A stretch of DNA of 64,000 nucleotides, from IMG/VR virus record IMGVR_UViG_3300048693_000367, positions 58,199 to 122,198 of that record, one strand, 5' to 3'. Below the pieces are notes generated by a model. It was not told where the DNA came from. It made no database searches and was given only the letters and a program-made list of their open reading frames with translations. Position 1 is the first letter of the stretch, and each line of letters opens with the position of its first letter. The DNA is from a virus (taxonomy: Duplodnaviria > Caudoviricetes). This document shows, one piece after another, positions 53,399 through 64,000 of this stretch. Position numbers and translations under genes: made by a program.

Positions 53399-54206
53399 TA
53401 ACTTCTAAAGCCTCTGGACTAAGTATGGGAGAGTCAACACTATTATCAGCATATTGGTGTAATTCGTGCAATGTTCTTTTGGCCTTTTCGGTAGCCATAG
53501 CTAAGATTTCCATTTCTCGTCCTTCTTTTTCTCTTATAGCTTCGTCTTCTAACATTCGAATTAAACCAACCCAACTACTCTTACCATCTTCTATTCTTTT
53601 AATACGCTGTTCGCGCGTGGCCTTTAAATCTTTGCTTATCTTTTGCTGTTCGTTTAAAAGCTTAGTATATTCATTAGTATAACTAGCAATACTATTTCGT
53701 GCAAAATTTAATTGAGTTTCTAAATTGGCTAGTCTGGGAATGTCTCTTTGGTCCTCTGGTTTTTCGTATTCTTTGTCTACTAATTTTTGTAGCTTCTCGG
53801 TTTCGGCAATATGGCGCTTACGCTCTTTCATGCTACGATTAATTAATATATCAATAGTGATAAACTGTTTAATTTGAAGTTCTTCCGCGGGTAAAACGTC
53901 CTCTCGGAATTGTTTAATTAGGCCAACCCACGTATCCTCAAAATACTGTAACTCGCCCGTTTCCTCATCAAACTGCCTCACCACCTCGTTCCAAAAAGTT
54001 TTGCTGCGTAACTTGCGCTTAAGAATCTCGTTTTCGCTCTTGTCATCTAAACTATACAATTGATTCTCATCAATATATCGTTTGATTGGATCCACATTGC
54101 GATTAAGTTGATCCGCAATATCTTCTATACTTAATATGTTAATATTTTCAGTGATGAATTTTTCTTCATCTAAACTAAGTTGTCCGCGTTTTTTAGCCAT
54201 GATCAC
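53382..54206 (-). CDS. hypothetical protein, terminase small subunit candidate
   Basis: N-terminal HTH-like region, coiled coil, upstream of terL. Confidence 0.45.
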   Translation of the reverse strand: MIMAKKRGQLSLDEEKFITENINILSIEDIADQLNRNVDPIKRYIDENQLYSLDDKSENEILKRKLRSKTFWNEVVRQFDEETGELQYFEDTWVGLIKQFREDVLPAEELQIKQFITIDILINRSMKERKRHIAETEKLQKLVDKEYEKPEDQRDIPRLANLETQLNFARNSIASYTNEYTKLLNEQQKISKDLKATREQRIKRIEDGKSSWVGLIRMLEDEAIREKEGREMEILAMATEKAKRTLHELHQYADNSVDSPILSPEALEVNDQEL

Positions 54207-54831
54207 TTATTATTTGTTTGAGTTTAATAGATAGTTTATCCATATCGCTTTTGCTAACTTTGGCGCCCCCTTTGACTCTTAAGTAAATTATGCGATCTTC
54301 ACCAGTAAGATGAGTTTCGCATAGTTCTAGTATTTCATTAGTAGCAATATTATTAAATAATAAACTATCATCGCTACTAAAAACGTTACCATAATCTTTA
54401 ACTTCGTCTATTGTGGTAAGATGCATAAGGTTCTTCTTGGTACTATTTCTGTTAATCCAAGATGAGTATAGAGTACAATCATCTTTGTTAGAGTATTGTT
54501 CGCAAGCGCTAGTGCTTTTTTTGAGGTGAGGGTCGTAAAATGGACAACTCAAACATGGTTTGTCTGGCCTTTGATAGTTGTCTCTTTTATAGTTAAACAA
54601 CCGATTACGAACATGGGTCCATAAGAAATTTTCTAGGGGCCTTTTGCTGTCGTAATTTTTTAATCCTTCCAGAGCAAAAATACTGATCTGCTGTTTCATA
54701 TCATCAAAGTCGTGATATCCAAATTTAAATTTATATGCTAATTTTTTTGCTATTATATCAACGATATTAAGAAATTCAGCTTCATCAACTTTCTTGTTTT
54801 GAGCTATTGTTTTCTTCGTTTTCTTTTTCAT
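54193..54831 (-). CDS. phage RNA polymerase sigma factor (sigma70 region 2-like)
   Basis: DDMKQQ...LEGLKNYD..RPLENFLWTHVRNRL.NY.R; CxxC insert. Confidence 0.7.
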   Translation of the reverse strand: MKKKTKKTIAQNKKVDEAEFLNIVDIIAKKLAYKFKFGYHDFDDMKQQISIFALEGLKNYDSKRPLENFLWTHVRNRLFNYKRDNYQRPDKPCLSCPFYDPHLKKSTSACEQYSNKDDCTLYSSWINRNSTKKNLMHLTTIDEVKDYGNVFSSDDSLLFNNIATNEILELCETHLTGEDRIIYLRVKGGAKVSKSDMDKLSIKLKQIISDHG

Positions 54832-55022: not shown

Positions 55023-55226
55023 ATGGCCACATATAAAAGATGGAATGATGCTGAGCTTCAGTATATCAAAGACAACTTGGCTCTATTTAGTGATGGTGAG
55101 TTAGCAACTAAGCTTAGTGAAATGACGGGAGAAACCGTTACTTATGGTATGATTCGCCGTCAACGTCGTAAGTTGGGCGTTAGCAAACCACGAGGCCGAC
55201 GCAAGAAAAGTCAGGGATCATTATGA
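55023..55226 (+). CDS. small basic HTH-like DNA-binding protein
   Basis: KRWNDAELQYI...ELA..L...IRRQRRKLG..KPRGRRKK; AGGAAGG RBS. Confidence 0.65.
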   Translation: MATYKRWNDAELQYIKDNLALFSDGELATKLSEMTGETVTYGMIRRQRRKLGVSKPRGRRKKSQGSL

Positions 55227-55706: not shown

Positions 55707-55784
55707 TAACTCATTGCTCTATGGATACTTAGGATATTTGGGATCCGCAAAATCGCACGTAAGTACTTATGCTGTAAGACTTTA
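55707..55784. repeat. 78-bp bipartite element, copy 1
   Basis: TAActcaTTgctctatGGatacTTA-N28-TAAgtacTTatgctgtAAgactTTA. Confidence 0.85.
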
Positions 55785-55872
55785 CGACGAGTTTTTCTCG
55801 AATTGTTAGGATTGCGTTAGATTTTCATGAATACTAACTGTCCACTGAGCCGGCAAAAAATTCTTATTGATA

Positions 55873-55897
55873 TAAACTATTGAAAAATAATGACTTA
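55873..55897. repeat. solo 25-bp box of the same family
   Basis: TAAactaTTgaaaaatAAtgacTTA. Confidence 0.65.
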
Positions 55898-55928
55898 GAA
55901 AAATCTGAAAATATTTTTAAGAAGCCTA

Positions 55929-55957
55929 TTGACTTTGGACGATCATATTGGTATAAT
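55929..55957 (+). promoter_or_regulatory. sigma70-type promoter
   Basis: TTGACT-N17-TATAAT. Confidence 0.8.
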
Positions 55958-55994
55958 TAAGTATCAAAGGAAAAGAGAAGAAAAGGAAAGAAAA

Positions 55995-56240
55995 ATGATC
56001 TTCAACACGATGCAAGAAGTTTTAGACTATATCGCAGATAATCAGCCTGAGAATCTGGATGGACACTACGCTTCGGGCGAGTTGTTCGATATGCTTCGCA
56101 ATCATGCAGAGAATGCCCGTAAGGATTGGTGGCCTTCTTGCAAGTATTTTGGATACATGGAAGAATACGATATGGGTGAAGGTGAATCGATGGAAATCGA
56201 CGAAACCGGAAAGATCATTAATTCTAGCGTATACTTCTGA
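55995..56240 (+). CDS. small acidic protein (paralog of 57532..57765)
   Basis: true start after purine-rich leader; NT..E...AS..L...R...G.M....EIDE.G. Confidence 0.7.
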   Translation: MIFNTMQEVLDYIADNQPENLDGHYASGELFDMLRNHAENARKDWWPSCKYFGYMEEYDMGEGESMEIDETGKIINSSVYF

Positions 56241-56246
56241 ACAGTA

Positions 56247-56274
56247 TTGACAATCTAAAAATATCTGGTATAAT
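56247..56274 (+). promoter_or_regulatory. sigma70-type promoter
   Basis: TTGACA-N16-TATAAT. Confidence 0.8.
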
Positions 56275-56301
56275 TCAGACATAAGAAAGAGAGAAAGAAA
56301 A

Positions 56302-56469
56302 ATGACCTACTTTGCTGAAATCGTGGATCACTGGGAAGAAGAATTGGATATTCTTGGCCCGTTTAAGAGTGAAGAAGAAGCACACAATGCCGCTTATGAG
56401 AAGTGGGATGGTGATGCTAATCTTGCGGAAATTCGAATCATTAAGAGGCTTCCCGCTTTATCTAACTGA
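56302..56469 (+). CDS. small acidic protein (55 aa, not in ORF track)
   Basis: MTYFAEIVDHWEEELDILGPFKSEEEA...; AAGAAAGAGAGAAAGAAAA leader. Confidence 0.7.
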   Translation: MTYFAEIVDHWEEELDILGPFKSEEEAHNAAYEKWDGDANLAEIRIIKRLPALSN

Positions 56470-56502
56470 ACAGGCGTTCATTGGTATACAAAAAACTCGA
56501 CG

Positions 56503-56580
56503 TAAACCCTTGTGGGATAAGGAGTTACGACGAATTTTCGCCCGCAAATTTGACGTAAGTACTTGCTAAGTAACGACTTA
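56503..56580. repeat. 78-bp bipartite element, copy 2
   Basis: TAAacccTTgtgggatAAggagTTA-N28-TAAgtacTTgctaagtAAcgacTTA. Confidence 0.9.
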
Positions 56581-56759
56581 CGATCAGTGTTTTGATGCTT
56601 ATTGCCCATCTTAACACACAGCAAATATCATGCCAATCGCAAACAAAAACGCTAAAAGTTTTGTCAAAATCTCTTGACATAAAAATTACGATTTTTCTCT
56701 TGAACATTCAAGCCGGCATGGTATAATACCGATATAACAAGTAAGAGAAGAAAGAGAGA

Positions 56760-56984
56760 ATGAAAATGGAAAGCATGATGAAAAAGTTTCTGGATACTAA
56801 GGCTCAGATTTGGGGCGATGAGTCCCACGCCTGTACGATTGTTTACGAAGTTTCTACGAAAAAGTTTCGTGCGGAAACTGAGTGTGATTCGCGGATTCTG
56901 AACGAGAAGAACTACGAAAGAGTTCTCAATGATATGTTCTACGATTACTGTGTGGAAAACGCTTCTTATATGGGCGTCTCCTGA
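56760..56984 (+). CDS. hypothetical protein
   Basis: promoter TTGAAC..TATAAT (56700-56727) and purine-rich leader. Confidence 0.7.
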   Translation: MKMESMMKKFLDTKAQIWGDESHACTIVYEVSTKKFRAETECDSRILNEKNYERVLNDMFYDYCVENASYMGVS

Positions 56985-57051
56985 GACAAACGTACAGTAT
57001 TGACCACCTAAAAATCTTTGGTATAATATAAAGAAAGAAAGAGAGAAAAAG

Positions 57052-57240
57052 ATGATTACAGAAGTTTTCAAGAATGGTAAAACGATTGGGTTTGTGGTGG
57101 GTAAGGATAGACTTTCTTCGGCCAGTATGGTAGCAAAGGCTTTCCCTCAAGTGGATAAGGTTGAGACTGTTCGTGACTTACCTAAGCATGATCCAAGATG
57201 CAAAAAGATTGCAGATAACGTATATGCCTGGGTAAACTAG
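57052..57240 (+). CDS. hypothetical protein (family A; paralogs at 58912 and 59757)
   Basis: promoter TTGACC-N16-TATAAT at 57000-57027; MITEVFKNGKTIGFVV...DPRCKKIA.NVYAW. Confidence 0.75.
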   Translation: MITEVFKNGKTIGFVVGKDRLSSASMVAKAFPQVDKVETVRDLPKHDPRCKKIADNVYAWVN

Positions 57241-57274
57241 GCAACTTACGCACTTTCCTCTAAAAAACTCGACG

Positions 57275-57352
57275 TAAACCCTTGGTACGTAAGGACTTAG
57301 GACGAATTTTGCGGCGAAAATTTGACGTAACTCCTTATGCTGCAACGACTTA
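57275..57352. repeat. 78-bp bipartite element, copy 3
   Basis: TAAacccTTggtacgtAAggacTTA-N28-TAActccTTatgctgcAAcgacTTA. Confidence 0.9.
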
Positions 57353-57531
57353 CGACGACTTTTTTGGGCATGATTCTTGCAATTAGCAAATACTGTGCCA
57401 AACATACTCAAAATAATGAAAAGTTTTGTCAAAATCTCTTGACATAAAAATTCCTATTTTTCTCTTGTAATTTCAAGAAAGCATGGTATAATGTCGATAT
57501 AAGAAAAAGAGAAAGAAAGAGAGAAAGAAAA

Positions 57532-57765
57532 ATGGAAAACCTTATCGTTCTGAATACTGTGGCTGAGTTGACCGAGTTCCTCAACAATACTTCTCTCGAT
57601 ACTCTAGTGAATAGGGTTGCTTTTGCTAGCGATCTTCTGGAAAAGGTTCGCGAGAACGAATTCAATCAGATCAACATAGATGAGGAAATCGGATTTATGG
57701 ATGATGGGGGTTGGATTGAAATTGACGAAATGGGCTATGTTGTGGATGATGCTTATCTCCCCTAA
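57532..57765 (+). CDS. small acidic protein (paralog of 55995..56240)
   Basis: promoter region near-duplicate of 56655-56760. Confidence 0.7.
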   Translation: MENLIVLNTVAELTEFLNNTSLDTLVNRVAFASDLLEKVRENEFNQINIDEEIGFMDDGGWIEIDEMGYVVDDAYLP

Positions 57766-57807
57766 GTTATCTAACAATCCTAAACCCTAAACAGAAAGAA
57801 GAAAGAA

Positions 57808-58122
57808 ATGTATCCGATTATCCGAAATGCAAAACGACAAGCCCGAATGATTTTCTTGGGGATCGCAATCCCGACCGAAGTGAAAAACATAGACGGTGAA
57901 AATATACAGGTTGAGAAGGTTATCAAATTCAATCGAACCGCTCTAAAGAATATAGGCAAGCGTAAGGTAGAGAAGAATGATCCTCGTTTCGTAGGGGGTG
58001 GTGATCATATGATCATACGCGTGGGAAAGCCGGGCTCATCTGAGCGTGTACAGGCTCTCTCATCTCAATATGCTGCAATTCTTGCAAGTGGAGAAGAAAT
58101 ATCCCCCTTCGCAGAGGGGTAG
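57808..58122 (+). CDS. hypothetical protein (family B; paralog at 59992)
   Basis: II.NAK.QARM.FLGIAIP...KFNR.AL.N.GK...DPRFVGG...GKPGS.ERV.AL. Confidence 0.75.
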   Translation: MYPIIRNAKRQARMIFLGIAIPTEVKNIDGENIQVEKVIKFNRTALKNIGKRKVEKNDPRFVGGGDHMIIRVGKPGSSERVQALSSQYAAILASGEEISPFAEG

Positions 58123-58161
58123 TAGGTGAACCAACGTACACTACTGTACAAAAACTCGCCG

Positions 58162-58239
58162 TAAACCCTTGCTACGTAAGGAGTTACAGCGAATTTTCGC
58201 CCGCAAATTTGACGTAAGTGCTTGTGGCATAACGACTTA
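58162..58239. repeat. 78-bp bipartite element, copy 4
   Basis: TAAacccTTgctacgtAAggagTTA-N28-TAAgtgcTTgtggcatAAcgacTTA. Confidence 0.9.
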
Positions 58240-58438
58240 CATCAACCTTCTTGTGGTGCTGAAATTTTAGGCACACTATATATGGTGTAGTGCAAAATGC
58301 TACACTATGCAATATCTCGGCCCAAAACACGACGCAAAATGCTACAGCGCTGTAGCAAAATGCTACGCTCAATATCTAGGCACAAAAAGTAGCATAGCGT
58401 TTTTCCCGAAGAAAACACACAAAAAATATTTTTCGGTT

Positions 58439-58454
58439 TGGCACAGAAAGTGCA
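58439..58454 (+). promoter_or_regulatory. sigma54-like -24/-12 promoter
   Basis: TGGCAC-AGAAA-GTGCA, 33 bp upstream of ATG 58488; GCAAAATGCTAC x3 upstream. Confidence 0.5.
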
Positions 58455-58487
58455 TTTATATATGGTATAAGAAAGAGAGAGTGTAAG

Positions 58488-58646
58488 ATGGAAAAGATGA
58501 TTTTTTACGTTTCGGACTGCTGTGGTGTTGAGGGTAACCCTGATTATCAGGTCTGCTCATGCTGTGGTGAACATTGTGAGATTGTGACTGATGATAGTCT
58601 GGTTTCCGATTATATCCCCGGTTATGATGATGGTGAGGCTGTCTAG
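58488..58646 (+). CDS. small Cys-rich acidic protein (52 aa, not in ORF track)
   Basis: SDCCG...CSCCGEHCE; purine-rich leader. Confidence 0.7.
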   Translation: MEKMIFYVSDCCGVEGNPDYQVCSCCGEHCEIVTDDSLVSDYIPGYDDGEAV

Positions 58647-58668
58647 TCTTGCCTAGTCGGGGTTTGAC

Positions 58669-58834
58669 GCGTCTCAGCCGAACTAGTCGGCTCGCAGTCG
58701 TAGCATAGTCAGCGAGTTAGTCGAGCGTCTCAGCCGAACTAGTCGGCTCGCAGTCGTAGCATAGTCAGCGAGTTAGTCGAGCGTCTCAGCCGAACTAGTC
58801 GGCTCGCAGCCGTAGCATAGTCAGCGAGTTAGTC
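58669..58834. repeat. three tandem 56-bp direct repeats
   Basis: unit GCGTCTCAGCCGAACTAGTCGGCTCGCAGTCGTAGCATAGTCAGCGAGTTAGTCGA at 58669, 58725, 58781. Confidence 0.95.
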
Positions 58835-58911
58835 AGACTAAAGTGTGAGCAGTTGACAAGCCGATATTAGTAGTGTAGAATCGTGATATGAGAAAGAAAG
58901 AGGAAAAGAAG

Positions 58912-59103
58912 ATGACTTTGGAAGTTTATCAGAATGGTTTGGCTGTTGGTTTCGTGCAGGCTAAAAACAAACTGCAAGCCTATGATCTGGTAAGAAAGTA
59001 TTTTCCAGATTGCTCTAATGTTCGCACTGGACATTTGCCGATCTCTGATGTAAGATGCGTAAAGGTGAACGATAACGTCTATACTTGGAACCTTACCAAA
59101 TGA
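58912..59103 (+). CDS. hypothetical protein (family A, divergent)
   Basis: promoter TTGACA-N17-TAGAAT at 58853-58881; EVYQNG..VGFV...LP..D.RC.K...NVY.W. Confidence 0.7.
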   Translation: MTLEVYQNGLAVGFVQAKNKLQAYDLVRKYFPDCSNVRTGHLPISDVRCVKVNDNVYTWNLTK

Positions 59104-59306
59104 GTCCTGAACTAATCGCTATGGCTTGCCTGTTTGTGGTGGGTATTATTATCATGGGATTGGTTTGTGCTGTGCTTGCTATTGGGGATACCATCTGCAA
59201 GAAAATAGCCAAAAAGGAATTGAATGATGCAGGATTTGAATCTGATGGGTTTATCCATACAGATGAGGATGGTACTAAGTGGCTTGTGGGATATAAAAAG
59301 GATTAA
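59100..59306 (+). CDS. small membrane protein
   Basis: ATGA overlap; hydrophobic N-terminal helix. Confidence 0.6.
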   Translation: MSPELIAMACLFVVGIIIMGLVCAVLAIGDTICKKIAKKELNDAGFESDGFIHTDEDGTKWLVGYKKD

Positions 59307-59321
59307 AGAAAGGAATCACGG

Positions 59322-59432
59322 ATGGTCGATATTAATATAGATTGGATGTGGATGGGTGTGGGATTTGTTATTGGCATTAGTTGTGCTTGGCTTGTTTCTG
59401 ACTTGGTTTTTCCTATAAAGGATAAGAAATGA
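59322..59432 (+). CDS. 36-aa single-TM peptide
   Basis: AAGGAA RBS; WMWMGVGFVIGISCAWLV. Confidence 0.5.
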   Translation: MVDINIDWMWMGVGFVIGISCAWLVSDLVFPIKDKK

Positions 59433-59506
59433 ATCTTTACGATAAGGTAGTGCTTTCTGTTTCTTTTGCTTTTGGTTGTGTGGTTGCTTGGGTAATTAAT
59501 TCTTAA
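59429..59506 (+). CDS. 25-aa single-TM peptide
   Basis: ATGA overlap; VVLSVSFAFGCVVAWVI. Confidence 0.45.
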   Translation: MNLYDKVVLSVSFAFGCVVAWVINS

Positions 59507-59508
59507 CC

Positions 59509-59586
59509 TAAGTGGTTGACATATAAAGACTTAGGGTGAGCCGGCGCCGCCCGATTTGCCGTAAGTTGTTTGATACCAACACTTTA
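59509..59586. repeat. 78-bp bipartite element, copy 5
   Basis: TAAgtggTTgacatatAAagacTTA-N28-TAAgttgTTtgataccAAcactTTA. Confidence 0.9.
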
Positions 59587-59756
59587 CGAGCAATTTCTCA
59601 CGATACCATCTGTCCACTGCGATACCTAAACGAAGCGGGTCGATGCAACATCGGGCCAAATAAGGACTTAGGGAAAATCCGAGAATTTTCTAAAGATTCC
59701 ATTTGACTTTTGACGATCTCTTAGGTATAATTTAGCATAAGAAAGAGAGAAAGAAA

Positions 59757-59942
59757 ATGATCACAGAAGTTTTCAAGAATGGTAAGACGATTGGTTTTGT
59801 TGTGAGTAAGGATAGGCTTTCTTCAGTCGATCTAATCATCAAGGCTTTCCCACAAGTGGATAGGGTCAAGACTAATTCTACCCTTCCCAAGTATGATCCG
59901 CGATGCAAGAAAATCGCTGAAAATGTTTACGCTTGGGCTTGA
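59757..59942 (+). CDS. hypothetical protein (family A)
   Basis: promoter TTGACT-N17-TATAAT at 59703-59731; near-identical N-terminus to 57052. Confidence 0.75.
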   Translation: MITEVFKNGKTIGFVVSKDRLSSVDLIIKAFPQVDRVKTNSTLPKYDPRCKKIAENVYAWA

Positions 59943-59991
59943 CATTCATCAAAGAGTTTTGCTAGAATCAAACCAACACAAAAGGGAAAAC

Positions 59992-60333
59992 ATGAAACAG
60001 AAATTTGAGATTATCGAAAACGCTAAGAAACAGGCTCGTATGTGCTTTCTCGGGATTGCGATTCCACACCAACCCTCTCTTGCGGATGGTGAGTATGGCC
60101 CGATTCGTTCGGAAAAAGTTTTGAAGTTCAATCGCAAAGCACTTCGCAACCTTGGCAAAGTGAAGAAAGAAAAGTCCGACCCTCGATTTGTGGGTGGTGA
60201 GGATACCATGATCGTAAAGACTGGAAAGCCGGGTTCAAAAGAACGGGTTGAGGCTCTGGCTCACCAATATGGTGCGATTCTGGCTTGTGGTGAGGAAGTT
60301 TCACCGTTTGCGTTCAAGGGGAGCGATGAATAA
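59992..60333 (+). CDS. hypothetical protein (family B)
   Basis: clear paralog of 57808..58122. Confidence 0.75.
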   Translation: MKQKFEIIENAKKQARMCFLGIAIPHQPSLADGEYGPIRSEKVLKFNRKALRNLGKVKKEKSDPRFVGGEDTMIVKTGKPGSKERVEALAHQYGAILACGEEVSPFAFKGSDE

Positions 60334-60361
60334 TCGTTCACCACTGAACAAAAACTGAACC

Positions 60362-60439
60362 TAAACCCTTACTGCTAAAAGACTTAGGGCGAGCCGGCGC
60401 CGCGAAAGTTGTTCTAAGTACTGATAGCGTAAGGATTTA
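60362..60439. repeat. 78-bp bipartite element, copy 6
   Basis: TAAacccTTactgctaAAagacTTA-N28-TAAgtacTGatagcgtAAggatTTA. Confidence 0.9.
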
Positions 60440-60523
60440 CATTAAATAAAAAATTAATGCTCACTATTGACTTATGCCGATAATATGTTATACTGTTAAA
60501 AACAAGATTGGAGAGTCAAAAGC

Positions 60524-61096
60524 ATGAAATACTATTTTGGTCTTATCTGTGTTCTGTGTTCAACTGCGGTGTATGCGGAAACCATTTCGAACACAAATAT
60601 TGTGCTGTCTAATCAGTTGAGTAATTATTACTCTTTGCTAGTTTATCAAAACGAAGATAAGACAGACTATACGGAAATATTTGTAGAATTAAATGGGAAT
60701 ATGCTTTCTGCTATTTCGTCCTGTATGGATGAAGGTTCCGATTGGTACTTAGTAGATTATGCAACAAGTCTGGATTATTCTAATCCCTTGATTCAAACCA
60801 CAGAAACGTCTATTGAAACTTACACGCTAGACGTTGGATATGGCAATTTCTATTTGGCAGTTAATACGGGAAATGCATATGGATATGGATGGCCGCCTAG
60901 AAATATCTATGGATGGGCTGAACTAAATAACACTAATGGCCAGTTAAGCATGATAAATAATAGTATAACCTATGATAGTGGTATGGTTATGTCTACTGCT
61001 TTTATAGGTGTTCCTGAGCCATCTTCTATTATTCTCTTATTCTTGGGCTTGTGTTTTTTGTGCTGTAAAGTATTGTGTGGTAAGGATTTAGGTTGA
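60524..61096 (+). CDS. PEP-CTERM sorting domain-containing protein
   Basis: signal peptide (..STAVYA); C-terminal VPEPSSIILLFLGLCFL; promoter TTGACT..TATACT at 60467-60494. Confidence 0.8.
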   Translation: MKYYFGLICVLCSTAVYAETISNTNIVLSNQLSNYYSLLVYQNEDKTDYTEIFVELNGNMLSAISSCMDEGSDWYLVDYATSLDYSNPLIQTTETSIETYTLDVGYGNFYLAVNTGNAYGYGWPPRNIYGWAELNNTNGQLSMINNSITYDSGMVMSTAFIGVPEPSSIILLFLGLCFLCCKVLCGKDLG

Positions 61097-61143
61097 GCCG
61101 GCGCCGCCCCGCTCGACGTAACTCCTTATGCTGCAACACTTTA
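61066..61143. repeat. 78-bp bipartite element, copy 7 (overlaps PEP-CTERM 3' end)
   Basis: TAAagtaTTgtgtggtAAggatTTA-N28-TAActccTTatgctgcAAcactTTA. Confidence 0.9.
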
Positions 61144-61220
61144 GGAACAAAATAAAAATCGTCTAAAGATTATGCTTGACTCTTGCCGATCTATACTATA
61201 CAATCGAGTGTAGGAGAAAG

Positions 61221-61370
61221 ATGATGAAAACGAAGAAGAAGCCAGTAAGTGGATTTCAGAAAACAGAAGCCAGAATGAAGCAGGAAACGTGTCGTGCTCT
61301 GGCTCAAGTCAAGTTTCTGGAAAAACTGTATCGTGAGATGTTGGAAAGTAAGAAAAAGGAAAGCAAGTAA
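61221..61370 (+). CDS. small basic hypothetical protein
   Basis: promoter TTGACT-N17-TACAAT at 61176-61204; AGGAG RBS. Confidence 0.6.
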   Translation: MMKTKKKPVSGFQKTEARMKQETCRALAQVKFLEKLYREMLESKKKESK

Positions 61371-61678
61371 TGACACACGCTGAAGCAACTCGTATGGTTC
61401 ATGGTAAAGGTAATCGGATGAAGCGAAAGGTGGGAAATAATACCTATGCGGAGATTTTCCGTGATGGCACAGTAGGTATCATGTTGCATAGTACGTATGT
61501 TGTGAAGATTCATCCCGATAATACCTATACTCTTAATAGTGGGGGTTGGCAAACTCTGACCACCAAGGATAGGATTAACCAGTATAGCCCGCGTTATGTT
61601 TACCAAAAGAATTTCGAATGGTTCGTGAAGATTAATGATAAATCATATCCGTTTATAGATGGTATGGTTGTGAGTTGA
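61370..61678 (+). CDS. hypothetical protein
   Basis: LH.T.VV...LNSGGWQTLTTKDRIN...VYQKNFEWFV. Confidence 0.7.
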   Translation: MTHAEATRMVHGKGNRMKRKVGNNTYAEIFRDGTVGIMLHSTYVVKIHPDNTYTLNSGGWQTLTTKDRINQYSPRYVYQKNFEWFVKINDKSYPFIDGMVVS

Positions 61679-61680
61679 TC

Positions 61681-61758
61681 TAAAGCCTTGCCACTAAAGA
61701 ACTTAGGGCGAGGCCGCGCCGCCCCGCGCGTCGTAACTCCTTATACCACAACACTTTA
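61681..61758. repeat. 78-bp bipartite element, copy 8
   Basis: TAAagccTTgccactaAAgaacTTA-N28-TAActccTTataccacAAcactTTA. Confidence 0.9.
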
Positions 61759-61864
61759 CATCAACAAAAATTTTTTTTGGATTTTTTATAGATACGCTAT
61801 TGACTTGGCCGATACACTCTGTATAATGGTAGTATCACAAGAGAAACCCATAAGGAAGTCAAAA

Positions 61865-62062
61865 ATGTACGATTTTGAAGAAATCAATTCGATTCTGGAT
61901 CAAATGGCCCAAGAGGGTACGATTGAGCCTATGGTCGAGCCGATTGACGATCCCGGCGTGGAAGTCAACTTTTGGGATTGGGCAGATGTTGTGGGTTGTG
62001 TGGATGATTTTGCCCCTGTCGAGATGATGGATGAAAACGGCGAAACGTGGATTGTGGAATAG
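61865..62062 (+). CDS. small highly acidic protein
   Basis: promoter TTGACT-N16-TATAAT at 61800-61827; MYDFEEINSILDQM... Confidence 0.7.
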   Translation: MYDFEEINSILDQMAQEGTIEPMVEPIDDPGVEVNFWDWADVVGCVDDFAPVEMMDENGETWIVE

Positions 62063-62124
62063 GGCTTGACAGCCTAAAGTTTTTAGGATAGAATCCCGAT
62101 AACACTAGTAAAGAGGAAAACAAA

Positions 62125-62388
62125 ATGAGCCATCCTGACCCGTGCTACGATCCCGATAACTCTTATGAGGATGATATGAATTACGACGATTACAATGATT
62201 TTTATGATGAAAATGAAGATCGTGACGATATTGATAACTCTGGAGAGATCGATTGGTATGATGAAAATGATGATAGTATGGATGGGGATCATGAGAGTGG
62301 CCTCGCTTCCGCAGGATGGGGAACCGATGAGGACTACGGGTATTATGGTGATGATACCCCGATGAGCGATTACTATGATGGTGAATAA
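62125..62388 (+). CDS. extremely acidic Asp/Tyr-rich protein
   Basis: promoter TTGACA-N17-TAGAAT at 62066-62094; MDGDHESGLASAGWGTDEDYG. Confidence 0.75.
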   Translation: MSHPDPCYDPDNSYEDDMNYDDYNDFYDENEDRDDIDNSGEIDWYDENDDSMDGDHESGLASAGWGTDEDYGYYGDDTPMSDYYDGE

Positions 62389-62416
62389 TTACTCTAAATT
62401 CAAAAAGGAAAAAGCA

Positions 62417-62650
62417 ATGGCCAAGTGTGTTGTGACCCATACGGATCTTTTTGGTGGTGAGGCTAATTACGGCTGGGTGAACCGTTACGAGTTTATCCCC
62501 AAGCGTGACGCTTCGCAGCGTAGTATCGTGAAGAAGGCTAAGGAATTGGCAGGCTTTACTGGTGTAAAGTCCGAAACCGAAGATTATGGCGATAGTTTCA
62601 AGATTAAGCCTCGCGGCTACAATCAAGTAATTTTCGTAGACTTTGAGTGA
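62417..62650 (+). CDS. hypothetical protein
   Basis: TDLFGGEANYGWVNR motif; AAGGA RBS. Confidence 0.7.
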   Translation: MAKCVVTHTDLFGGEANYGWVNRYEFIPKRDASQRSIVKKAKELAGFTGVKSETEDYGDSFKIKPRGYNQVIFVDFE

Positions 62651-62659
62651 AACTCTCCG

Positions 62660-62737
62660 CAAACCCTTTGTGCATAAGCACTTAGGGCGAGCGGGCGCCG
62701 CCGGCCTCGACGTAACTCCTTACGCAGCAACACTTTA
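62660..62737. repeat. 78-bp bipartite element, copy 9
   Basis: CAAacccTTtgtgcatAAgcacTTA-N28-TAActccTTacgcagcAAcactTTA. Confidence 0.9.
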
Positions 62738-62839
62738 CATCTAAAAAAAATTTTTCTAATGTTGAGGCTTGACAAGAGTCGATACATAGTGTAGACTCGT
62801 GATATGTTGATTGAGGGTTTTCTAACTGAAAGGGTTTTT

Positions 62840-63250
62840 ATGAACGATGTGATTCTGTTTGGTTCGATTTTTGCCTGTGTGCTTGGTTGTATGATTGCGT
62901 TTGCTGGTTTTCATATCTATCGTGGTGTTCATGGTTCACTCGCTAATGCGAAAGTTGGAGAGGTATTCAATTTTGAATATCTCCAGCCGCATCATGGTGA
63001 TCCGGTGCGAGTGCTTGCTAGGGTTATTGAGCCTGCGTATGCCTTGAGCGATGAGAGTATCCGTAGACTTAATGCTACGAGTAACTATCGTAGTAATGAT
63101 CCTGAGTTCAAGCGTACTCGTCATCTTATAACGTGTGAGACTCCGAATGGCGAGGTTCGACAGTTCTATGCAGAGCGTGCTAAGAACGTGCGTCGTCCTC
63201 TTCTTGCGGGACTGCTCTTCCGTACAGGTACTGCACACCTGTTCGCGTGA
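62840..63250 (+). CDS. membrane-anchored hypothetical protein
   Basis: promoter TTGACA-N17-TAGACT at 62769-62797; N-terminal TM helix. Confidence 0.7.
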   Translation: MNDVILFGSIFACVLGCMIAFAGFHIYRGVHGSLANAKVGEVFNFEYLQPHHGDPVRVLARVIEPAYALSDESIRRLNATSNYRSNDPEFKRTRHLITCETPNGEVRQFYAERAKNVRRPLLAGLLFRTGTAHLFA

Positions 63251-63280
63251 ACGATTGTTCAGTGTGGTTAACCCTGGCCC

Positions 63281-63358
63281 TAAGTTGTTGCCACGCAATG
63301 ACTTAGGGTTCGGGGGCGCCGCCCCGCTCGTCGTAAGTGCTTATACCACAACGACTTG
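63281..63358. repeat. 78-bp bipartite element, copy 10
   Basis: TAAgttgTTgccacgcAAtgacTTA-N28-TAAgtgcTTataccacAAcgacTTG. Confidence 0.9.
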
Positions 63359-63419
63359 CATCGCAAAAATATTTTTTCAAGAAACCCTATTGACAAGCCG
63401 ATAATAAATAGTAGAATGA

Positions 63420-64000
63420 TTGAAGAACAAGCAAACACTTGTTGGTTGTGTCGGGCCGAGCAGCCGGTAAAAACGGTAGTTGATGTCCTAGGAAACGTCT
63501 TCTACAATCGGTCCTAACAATACAAACTTTCGTGGGTCCATGCTCAGGGACTAGATTGGGATAAGCCATTACGATAAACCCCCCGTTCAGCGAAGCAATC
63601 GCCGGGGTTGACAACGGGCTTATACGTTGTATAGTAATGCCAATCTATGGGGGATAGCGTCCTCACCACGACCAATACGAGGACCATCTGTGTACATGCA
63701 GGAAAAAATGTGAATAGGGTTTGTTTAAGAACGCGAATGCGTTCCGCCCTATTGTGGTCCTCGCCAATACAACCAGTAACCGCTACCTCTGATAAACTGC
63801 CTGATATTAGGTACCCGAAAGCAGTGAAGCAGCGTGGGCGGTTTCCATCCGATCCTGACAAGGGGCAATCGTATGGGTTATAGGAACCGGGGCGAAAATG
63901 GTTCCGCTGGTTTTAAATCTGCTGATAGTTTCCTTAGATAAGGTAAAACCTTGAGGTTGAAGACAATACAGTACCACGTATTCTTCGTAAAACTATCAGT
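63420..64000 (+). ncRNA. candidate structured non-coding RNA(s)
   Basis: promoters at 63390-63417 and 63608-63635 not followed by an RBS/credible ORF; several short inverted repeats. Confidence 0.35.

Follow-up and report, generated by a model that had tools for sequence, protein, structure and literature searches.

The right-hand 64 kb (64,000 nucleotides; the window) of the 122,198-bp IMG/VR viral contig IMGVR_UViG_3300048693_000367, which is rated linear and 88% complete, contains between 55.7 and 63.4 kb an array of small genes that is punctuated by ten copies of a 78-bp DNA module. The contig derives from an uncultured phage of ~35% GC that encodes a 2647-aa tape-measure protein, a portal and a large terminase (TerL) on the minus strand, and is of the long-tailed siphovirus type, not T4-type. 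The region had no blastn match among isolate phage genomes, and TerL is only ~24% identical to isolate proteins, so this phage has no close cultured relative. Each module is made of a 25-bp box with the pattern TAA-N4-TT-N7-AA-N4-TTA, a 28-bp spacer with a GC-rich core, and a second 25-bp box. The copies in the window are as follows.

55707..55784, plus strand: module 1, degenerate, with 2 mismatches in box 1
56503..56580, plus strand: module 2, exact; AT-rich spacer arms flank a CGCCCGC core
57275..57352, plus strand: module 3, exact
58162..58239, plus strand: module 4, exact; followed by a repeat-rich 250 bp and only a weak promoter
59509..59586, plus strand: module 5, exact; GC-rich spacer
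60362..60439, plus strand: module 6, 1 mismatch; its left part recurs in a chimeric module of the relative L110
61066..61143, plus strand: module 7, exact; overlapped by the 3' end of the open reading frame (ORF) 60524-61096; its right part recurs in L110
61681..61758, plus strand: module 8, exact; starts 2 bp past the stop codon of ORF 61370-61678
62660..62737, plus strand: module 9, 1 mismatch (CAA for TAA)
63281..63358, plus strand: module 10, 1 mismatch (TTG for TTA); the relative L035 is identical to column 43 and diverges after it

An original prediction, made from the window sequence by itself, had described ten elements with these starts, a fixed geometry, a 53-bp period between boxes and a GC-rich spacer core, and all of this was confirmed in each of the ten copies. 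The single box has 17 exact matches in the window, compared with 0.86 expected from shuffled sequences (largest shuffle count, 3), and 16 of these lie on the plus strand in the 55.7-63.4 kb region. By searching the whole contig for the double box with up to two mismatches over its 20 fixed bases, it was found that the ten plus strand copies (six exact, three with one mismatch and the copy at 55707 with two) are the only ones present; the reversed pattern, used as a control, gave zero matches in the same contig. The boxes are 53 bp apart in 10/10 copies, and, also as predicted, copies 2-10 sit close to the end of a gene, with a stop codon 2-39 bp ahead of them except at copy 7, where the stop codon (61094-61096) falls inside the spacer.

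The module is not peculiar to this phage. A scan of viral contigs with the module pattern revealed at least 118 loci, and 355 distinct further copies were collected from other uncultured phage contigs when one mismatch was allowed and duplicates were removed. Five relatives of 100-231 kb, three of them complete, contain 13-16 copies each, all in the same orientation and gathered into one 15-20 kb block inside the genome; with the arrays placed in this way in complete relatives, the earlier suggestion that the elements control or protect the first-injected DNA gains no support. In one lineage (L285:10692-16782), the period of the TAA boxes is 52 bp instead of 53 bp in 6/6 modules. The original prediction had also proposed scanning candidate host genomes. 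Among 185,579 bacterial and archaeal species genomes there was no chromosomal module family: most hits were single and resembled chance matches in AT-rich DNA, and multi-copy arrays were limited to a few contigs of metagenome-assembled genomes (MAGs) with inconsistent labels (Gammaproteobacteria, Planctomycetaceae, unclassified). These MAG contigs are likely mis-binned phage DNA, and therefore the species-genome scan offers no clue to the host.

Alignment of 361 copies shows that the invariant bases of the box, at positions 1-3, 8-9, 17-18 and 23-25, are all A/T. The inner T8T9 and A17A18 pairs are conserved at 96-99% and the outer TTA/TAA triplets at 91-100%, with the central T/A of the outer triplets at 100%, while the N7 core is nearly unconserved. 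The GC core of the spacer is also conserved, and is often followed by TTT. In addition, the modules are polar, as each of the four half-sites and the spacer has a distinct consensus. A mini-CRISPR (repeat-spacer-repeat) was considered and rejected because its pattern is the reverse of this one: here the 28-bp 'spacer' keeps its GC core and the 25-bp 'repeats' vary outside their 10 fixed bases. The DnaA box, the sites of Fis and CRP, the LysR-type T-N11-A motif, the Spo0A box and the NtcA site were dropped as candidates on inspection by eye.

The modules are not RNA hairpins, as there is neither base-pair covariation nor a common fold. Across the same 361 copies, the Watson-Crick fraction at every variable position equals the expectation from composition, whether the box hairpin, a hairpin of the whole element or the spacer is considered, which bears out the earlier remark that the N4 arms often do not pair. 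A small Watson-Crick excess is confined to columns 21-22 with 57-58, and the highest mutual information links neighbouring bases and not bases that could pair. The ten window copies give minimum-free-energy folds that disagree with one another, with z-scores that are modest and alike on both strands, and scans of the window with Rfam and for tRNAs found nothing.

These results bear on a function as transcription terminators or as RNA processing or stabilizing elements at the 3' ends of early units, comparable to the stem-loop of promoter-early stem-loop (PeSL) cassettes or to repetitive extragenic palindromes (REPs). Such a role would be in keeping with the start of the modules 2-39 bp past stop codons, with a row of 15 strong promoters that have no canonical plus strand terminator between the units of the array, and with the GC-rich core that often precedes TTT. 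However, the folding tests described above argue against it, no terminator-like site found on the plus strand by a terminator scan coincides with any module, no U tract follows a stable stem at the modules, and the helical phasing to the next promoter that is described below is meaningless for an RNA element. Therefore, terminators or RNA elements are considered an improbable explanation.

The sites that follow the modules are early promoters of near-consensus strength, and consensus matching identified these in the array.

55929..63635, plus strand: fifteen sigma70-type promoters matching 10-12 of 12 consensus positions, with first hexamers at 55929, 56247, 56700, 57000, 57465, 58853, 59703, 59939, 60467, 61176, 61800, 62066, 62769, 63390 and 63608

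Nine of the ten window copies are followed, 27-144 bp downstream, by a promoter that matches at least 10 of 12 consensus positions. The prediction that every copy precedes a new promoter-ORF unit thus holds for those nine and fails for copy 4 (58162), whose best downstream promoter reaches just 9/12. The place where the normal promoter is missing behind module 4 (58280-58400) is taken up by a cluster of GCAAAATGCTACA-like repeats, and a unit of ~57 bp occurs in three tandem copies (58650-58830) after ORF 58488-58646.

The same relationship is evident across the family, in which 79% of 223 oriented copies have a promoter of at least 10/12 within 300 nt downstream, compared with 9% on the other side. 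The distance from the end of the module to the -35 hexamer is not continuous: it peaks at 20, 30-31, 41, 52 and 63 bp, with 182 of 218 distances falling in these peaks (Rayleigh R 0.62, period 10.5-11 bp), and in window copies 6-10 it is 27, 32, 41, 31 and 31 bp. The centre of box 2 thus lies near -68, -79 or -89, and that of box 1 five helical turns further upstream. Such dependence on the face of the helix is a signature of a protein-DNA architecture that works with RNA polymerase.

When polarity, phasing and lack of pairing are taken together, it is probable that the modules are protein-docking DNA elements that are coupled to a promoter. The original prediction had offered paired operators or loading sites for a dimeric protein as an alternative to its preferred account, and the polar arrangement of the modules, a whole number of helical turns ahead of the promoter, makes that alternative the better reading. 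We put at about an even chance the more specific proposal that the module is a double-stranded DNA docking site for a homodimeric bending protein of the IHF/HU family, phased with the next promoter, and not an RNA or recombinase site. That the protein which binds is itself of the IHF/HU type is held a shade less firmly, at just under evenly balanced.

This proposal starts from the register of the box, which reads T|T-N7-A|A with N4-TTA pointing outward on each side. In the 1996 IHF-H' structure of Rice and colleagues, the intercalated step is reportedly the A-A of ATCAA, four bp before TTR. Bending is the mode of action of IHF sites located ahead of sigma70 promoters, for example those of lambda pL and ilvPG. 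IHF introduces two kinks 9 bp apart and clamps a TTR element alongside, of which the central T is critical (10.1101/382655). The box register would accordingly be that of a symmetrised IHF site, mirrored on both sides, a likeness of geometry and not of membership in the Escherichia coli IHF regulon. Compared with the lambda H' site (WATCAR-N4-TTR), the modules share flexible steps 9 bp apart, 4 unspecified bp, a TTR with its critical central T and conserved patches that are all A/T (10.1101/382655). They differ from it in the symmetry of the boxes, in the lack of the inner WATC, in the fixed pairing of sites around a GC-rich core, and in the repetition of such pairs 10-16 times per genome. A symmetric box would suit a homodimer rather than the E. 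coli heterodimer.

A second line of evidence came from clustering the ORFs around 47 arrays, which identified a PF00216 protein of 92-99 aa (E 2e-27) that is encoded as a single-gene cassette between modules. Its best solved relatives are IHF chains, and the intercalating RNPxTG arm is present. Further searches found PF00216 cassettes in about six lineages; 15/15 close relatives of the protein in viral contigs are flanked by TAA boxes, and a module typically starts 6 bp past the stop codon of the gene. No PF00216 gene was found in 20 arrays or 5 genomes of sister phages that have an alternative module (type B, below). The presence of these cassettes inside TAA-box arrays suggests, but does not prove, an IHF/HU-type ligand.

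There is precedent for a phage-encoded protein of this kind. TF1 of the Bacillus phage SPO1 is an HU-family homodimer that is produced early, has preferred binding sites within the early promoter region of the phage and influences early transcription. The cassette protein resembles it in being an early HU/IHF-family protein of a large lytic phage, whereas the site preference of TF1 depends on hydroxymethyluracil DNA and most phages of the module family have no such gene. TF1 is not known to have a rigid paired-site module.

Several observations weigh against an IHF/HU-type ligand or against a general role of the module at promoters. Of the E. coli IHF consensus the boxes keep the (C/T)AA part but lack the inner WATC, and the four half-sites differ in their N4 consensus, where the coupling between adjacent bases is unexplained. 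Many strong promoters of the array have no module, and therefore the module is not needed for promoter activity. An HU/IHF gene was not found in this genome or in 8 of the 10 other records searched that have TAA-box (type A) modules, nor in a set made up of this genome plus four relatives; a suitable host protein has therefore to be assumed. Other cassette families are also specific to one module type; that IHF-like cassettes go with these arrays could accordingly be due to separate pools of cassettes and not to function. Finally, the copies share descent, and counts across the family are thus not independent.

Alternatively, the docked protein could belong to a family other than IHF/HU, with the modules as paired operators of a sequence-specific regulator that switches the early promoters off or on; this regulator could be an early or virion protein of the phage, or a transcription factor of the host. 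The lack of pairing, polarity and helical phasing apply equally to such operators, and a conserved helix-turn-helix (HTH) protein heads every array.

55023..55226, plus strand: p67, a three-helix HTH protein of 67 aa, encoded directly ahead of the array in every relative

One helix of p67, M(I/V)RRQRRKL, is invariant, and its basic tail reads RGR(R/P). Its predicted structure (pLDDT 83) has as nearest folds the GcrA DNA-binding domain and the Mos1 HTH, and the match to GcrA has a TM score of 0.82-0.86 on the target with a weak Foldseek E-value. The protein is encoded by 329 viral contigs, and the modules lie on one side of it, with none in 735 kb upstream and 126 in 388 kb downstream. The prediction had singled out this HTH protein for binding tests; its existence and its place at the head of every array were confirmed, but it does not vary together with module type.

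Half of the phages that encode p67 have no TAA boxes. They have instead the type B module, in which two copies of CTGCCA-N3-TGGCAG, repeated with a period of 29 bp, enclose a comparable GC-rich core; this module occupies the position that the type A module has elsewhere, between stop codon and promoter. A third group has neither the type A nor the type B module. No genome combines two types, and on the p67 tree the types are interspersed. G006, a complete type B genome, has 71% mean protein identity to the present phage over 27 core ORFs, compared with 57-63% for the type A genomes G001, G003 and G005. The interleaving, together with the closer relationship of G006, indicates that the module type is exchanged between lineages and that p67 is not a type-specific ligand. 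Phages of types A, B and C have the same p67 recognition helix, and no residue of the protein is type-specific; p67 was therefore rejected for that role.

The motif CCGAT(A) occurs 8-10 nt past the start of the -35 hexamer in 119 of 266 module-linked promoters, among them window promoters 58853, 60467, 61176, 61800 and 63390 and examples in L289, L296 and L322; other promoters have CGATA or GTGATA directly behind the -10 element. The CCGAT(A) motif is found with type A and type B modules alike, and it is therefore a candidate operator for the universally conserved p67.

The replacement of one module type by another in sister phages could be taken as a sign of allelic operator types with cognate binders. 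However, a search near p67 gave no type A-specific gene that is universal, and a comparison of whole genomes found no obvious DNA-binding gene that is common to four type A genomes and missing from G006; this comparison left a coiled-coil protein, a phosphatase-like protein, an unknown protein of the capsid region and a glycan gene, none of which was retained as a candidate. The lack of a type A-wide DNA binder fits a ligand that is supplied by the host. Moreover, it would be unusual for an HTH dimer to recognise a 25-bp site whose four A/T-only patches are spaced by 6.5, 9 and 6.5 bp. Paired operators for a regulator of another family are thus possible but judged rather unlikely. In type B phages, a beta-rich protein of 68-100 aa with the motif R.DGR.F.G...V....KGTLV....YKS.YLE and no Pfam match is present as 1-3 paralogues per array in 13 of 20 arrays (for example L278:3628-3831 and L289:11349-11627), and was seen in no type A array; this protein could be the type B counterpart of the module ligand.

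The modules are also the seams at which related phages gain and lose gene cassettes, and on this point the expectation that breakpoints in gene content would lie inside the elements was correct. Relative to L110, the window contains one extra 704-bp cassette that consists of a promoter and the gene for a secreted PEP-CTERM protein, and L110 has in its place one chimeric module, of which the left part equals window copy 6 and the right part copy 7, joined in their common 13-bp GC core. L035 equals copy 10 to column 43 and then continues into an extra cassette, whose other junction is at a promoter and not at a module. Among 340 modules with 200-bp flanks, 124 pairs share one flank only and 63 share both, and the density of junctions at the module plus promoter is 10-30x that of flanking genes. 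Flank-sharing pairs were used in place of the ends of high-scoring segment pairs (HSPs >=200 bp), which gave a weak enrichment at modules (17.5% vs 12.6%), because gene similarity fades at gene ends anyway. Strict change-point estimates are spread over columns -5 to 86, and some fall at the promoter instead.

The account favoured by the original prediction was a dedicated site-specific recombination system of integron-like or Xer-like type. The switches in the GC-rich core seen in the pairs window/L110 and window/L035 and the excess of junctions at modules fit this idea, as does the arms-around-N7 format, which is like that of a tyrosine-recombinase core site. However, a tyrosine recombinase (PF00589), for which a search of the rest of the genome had been proposed, was not found in genomes G000-G004, and neither a serine recombinase nor a Y1 transposase (including REP-associated tyrosine transposases, RAYTs) was found in G000, G001, G002, G003 and G005; the positive controls were detected in both searches. 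Two genomes in each set are complete by direct terminal repeats, and G005 is rated 100% complete but linear. The junctions are not focused on N7, and a 28-bp spacer is unfit for a 6-8 bp crossover region. Like the attC sites of integrons and of CALIN elements, the modules are repeated after each cassette ORF and mark differences in cassette content between relatives; unlike them, they have no integrase, no folded single strand and no fixed crossover point, and their cassettes have their own promoters instead of a common Pc. In addition, arrays are absent from bacterial genomes apart from the phage contigs likely mis-binned into MAGs. A dedicated system, with an enzyme that is encoded by the host or by the missing 12% of the genome, is therefore regarded as very improbable.

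The scatter of the junctions fits ordinary homologous recombination between dispersed repeats, as in PeSLs, and not a fixed-point site-specific exchange. In T4-type phages, recombination between copies of the PeSL cassette shuffles, adds and deletes gene modules (Arbiol et al. 2010, PMC2839356). Both systems have repeated intergenic units with a strong sigma70-like early promoter and an AT-rich upstream region, which abut the preceding stop codon in a plastic region of small unknown genes, and in both of them copy-to-copy recombination moves gene modules. They differ in that the PeSL is a true terminating stem-loop in a variable position to the promoter, whereas the modules form no hairpin, have a rigid 25+28+25 bp layout and are helically phased.

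Bacterial repeats offer a further comparison. REPs and bacterial interspersed mosaic elements (BIMEs) have been reported to act as terminators and as topological insulators of transcription-induced supercoiling (PMC3333891). RIB/RIP elements, which are BIME-1 repeats of E. coli with an IHF site (Boccard and Prentki 1993, cited in PMC3333891), are extragenic composite repeats found at 3' ends of transcription units, in which palindromic units and IHF binding come together, and the modules, as candidate sites for such binding, resemble them in this. Two REP hairpins flank one IHF site in RIB/RIP, whereas the modules have two IHF-like dyads flanking a GC-rich core, and RIB/RIP elements are chromosomal, not phage-borne.

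It was also considered that the modules might be selfish miniature mobile repeats, similar to REPINs or miniature inverted-repeat transposable elements (MITEs), that spread within phage genomes. The palindromic doublet with a linker recalls the BIME/REPIN architecture (PMC3333891), and there are hundreds of copies. However, REPs fold and are linked to RAYT transposases, and neither property holds for the modules: their units form no hairpins, and no RAYT/Y1 transposase was found in the genomes searched. The copies also stay in one block, in one orientation and in a fixed phase to promoters, with none in the 735 kb upstream of p67. This explanation is thus seen as highly unlikely.

If the docked protein is of the IHF/HU family, the following sequence of events can be proposed. 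The two 25-bp dyad boxes would share one face of the helix, at a distance of 53 bp or five turns and with a stiff GC-rich core between them. Each would bind one homodimer of the bending protein, and the whole module would precede the next near-consensus sigma70 early promoter by a whole number of helical turns. The ligand would be a host protein in most phages, including the present one, and the product of a phage's own cassette copy in some. Two in-phase U-turns may then fold the junction between transcription units into a compact nucleoprotein knot, making the module a boundary that shields or positions the downstream promoter. This boundary could activate the promoter architecturally from upstream, could insulate it against read-through and supercoiling that originate in the strong preceding unit, or could do both, so that the effect on transcription might be activation, insulation or shut-off. 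Cassettes would be moved by ordinary homologous recombination between modules, in the manner of PeSLs, because modules are the longest sequences common to otherwise unrelated cassettes.

The remaining features of the array and its surroundings are listed here.

54193..54831, minus strand: sigma-factor-like gene (Sigma70_r2, 23.4 bits vs a Pfam cut-off of 24)
55996..63250, plus strand: ~18 small cassette ORFs between modules, which include those below
56302-56469, 56760-56984, 57052-57240, 57532-57765, 57808-58122 and 58488-58646, plus strand: cassette ORFs
59757-59942, 59893-60333, 62125-62388, 62375-62650 and 62804-63250, plus strand: cassette ORFs
60524-61096, plus strand: 190-aa ORF whose start resembles a signal peptide and whose PEP-CTERM sorting motif scores slightly below the Pfam cut-off (E 6e-4)
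61370-61678, plus strand: ORF of the Kyano_Gp96 family

Homologues of the cassette ORFs are found in relatives in other orders. The PEP-CTERM cassette (60524-61096), which is missing from L110, hints at a host with an exosortase. The coding strand flips from 54.8 kb, where the minus strand sigma-like gene faces plus strand p67 and the array comes next; the sigma-like gene adjoins p67 in all relatives and is divergent from the early array. Past module 10, the segment 63359-64000 has consensus promoters at 63390 and 63608 and no sizeable plus strand ORF, is conserved at 74-92% in the relatives L035, L008 and L048, and gives no Rfam match; it may contain small RNA genes. Many contigs of the phage family (L272, L276, L277, L283-L287 and others) stop a few hundred bp past p67, and the present contig likewise terminates in or just beyond its own array. 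The ends cluster soon after p67, and therefore it appears that metagenome assemblies tend to break in the repeat arrays.

The new elements of this analysis are the register of the box as a candidate symmetrised IHF site, the occurrence of IHF/HU cassettes within arrays, the type B palindrome in sister phages, and the observation that p67 does not track the module type. As a tentative overall picture, which is held with less confidence than the identity of the ligand, large freshwater phages may have a modular promoter-boundary device in which two IHF-type U-turn sites are phase-locked round a GC core. Such a device would allow a dozen or more strong early promoters to be arranged head-to-tail without canonical terminators, would insulate the units topologically or as a roadblock, and would shape the next promoter. 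It would come in types A, B and at least one more, swapped between close relatives, with a bending protein that is sometimes cassette-borne, and would delimit exchangeable early-gene units.

How lytic phages keep consensus-strength early promoters that are a few hundred bp apart from interfering with one another is poorly understood, as is the way in which they shuffle their pools of small host-takeover genes. The modules offer a testable, sequence-defined answer in very abundant uncultured lake phages, as illustrated by the 329 contigs that encode p67, and the alternative module types in sister phages constitute a natural swap experiment. The analysis also corrects an attractive but wrong reading of the locus as a phage integron, and explains through the arrays why assemblies break in this region. 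If binding by an IHF/HU protein proves true, the modules would give the IHF-binding repeats that end bacterial transcription units, which are still unexplained, their first counterpart in phages, and would in addition provide a compact natural insulator part for synthetic biology.

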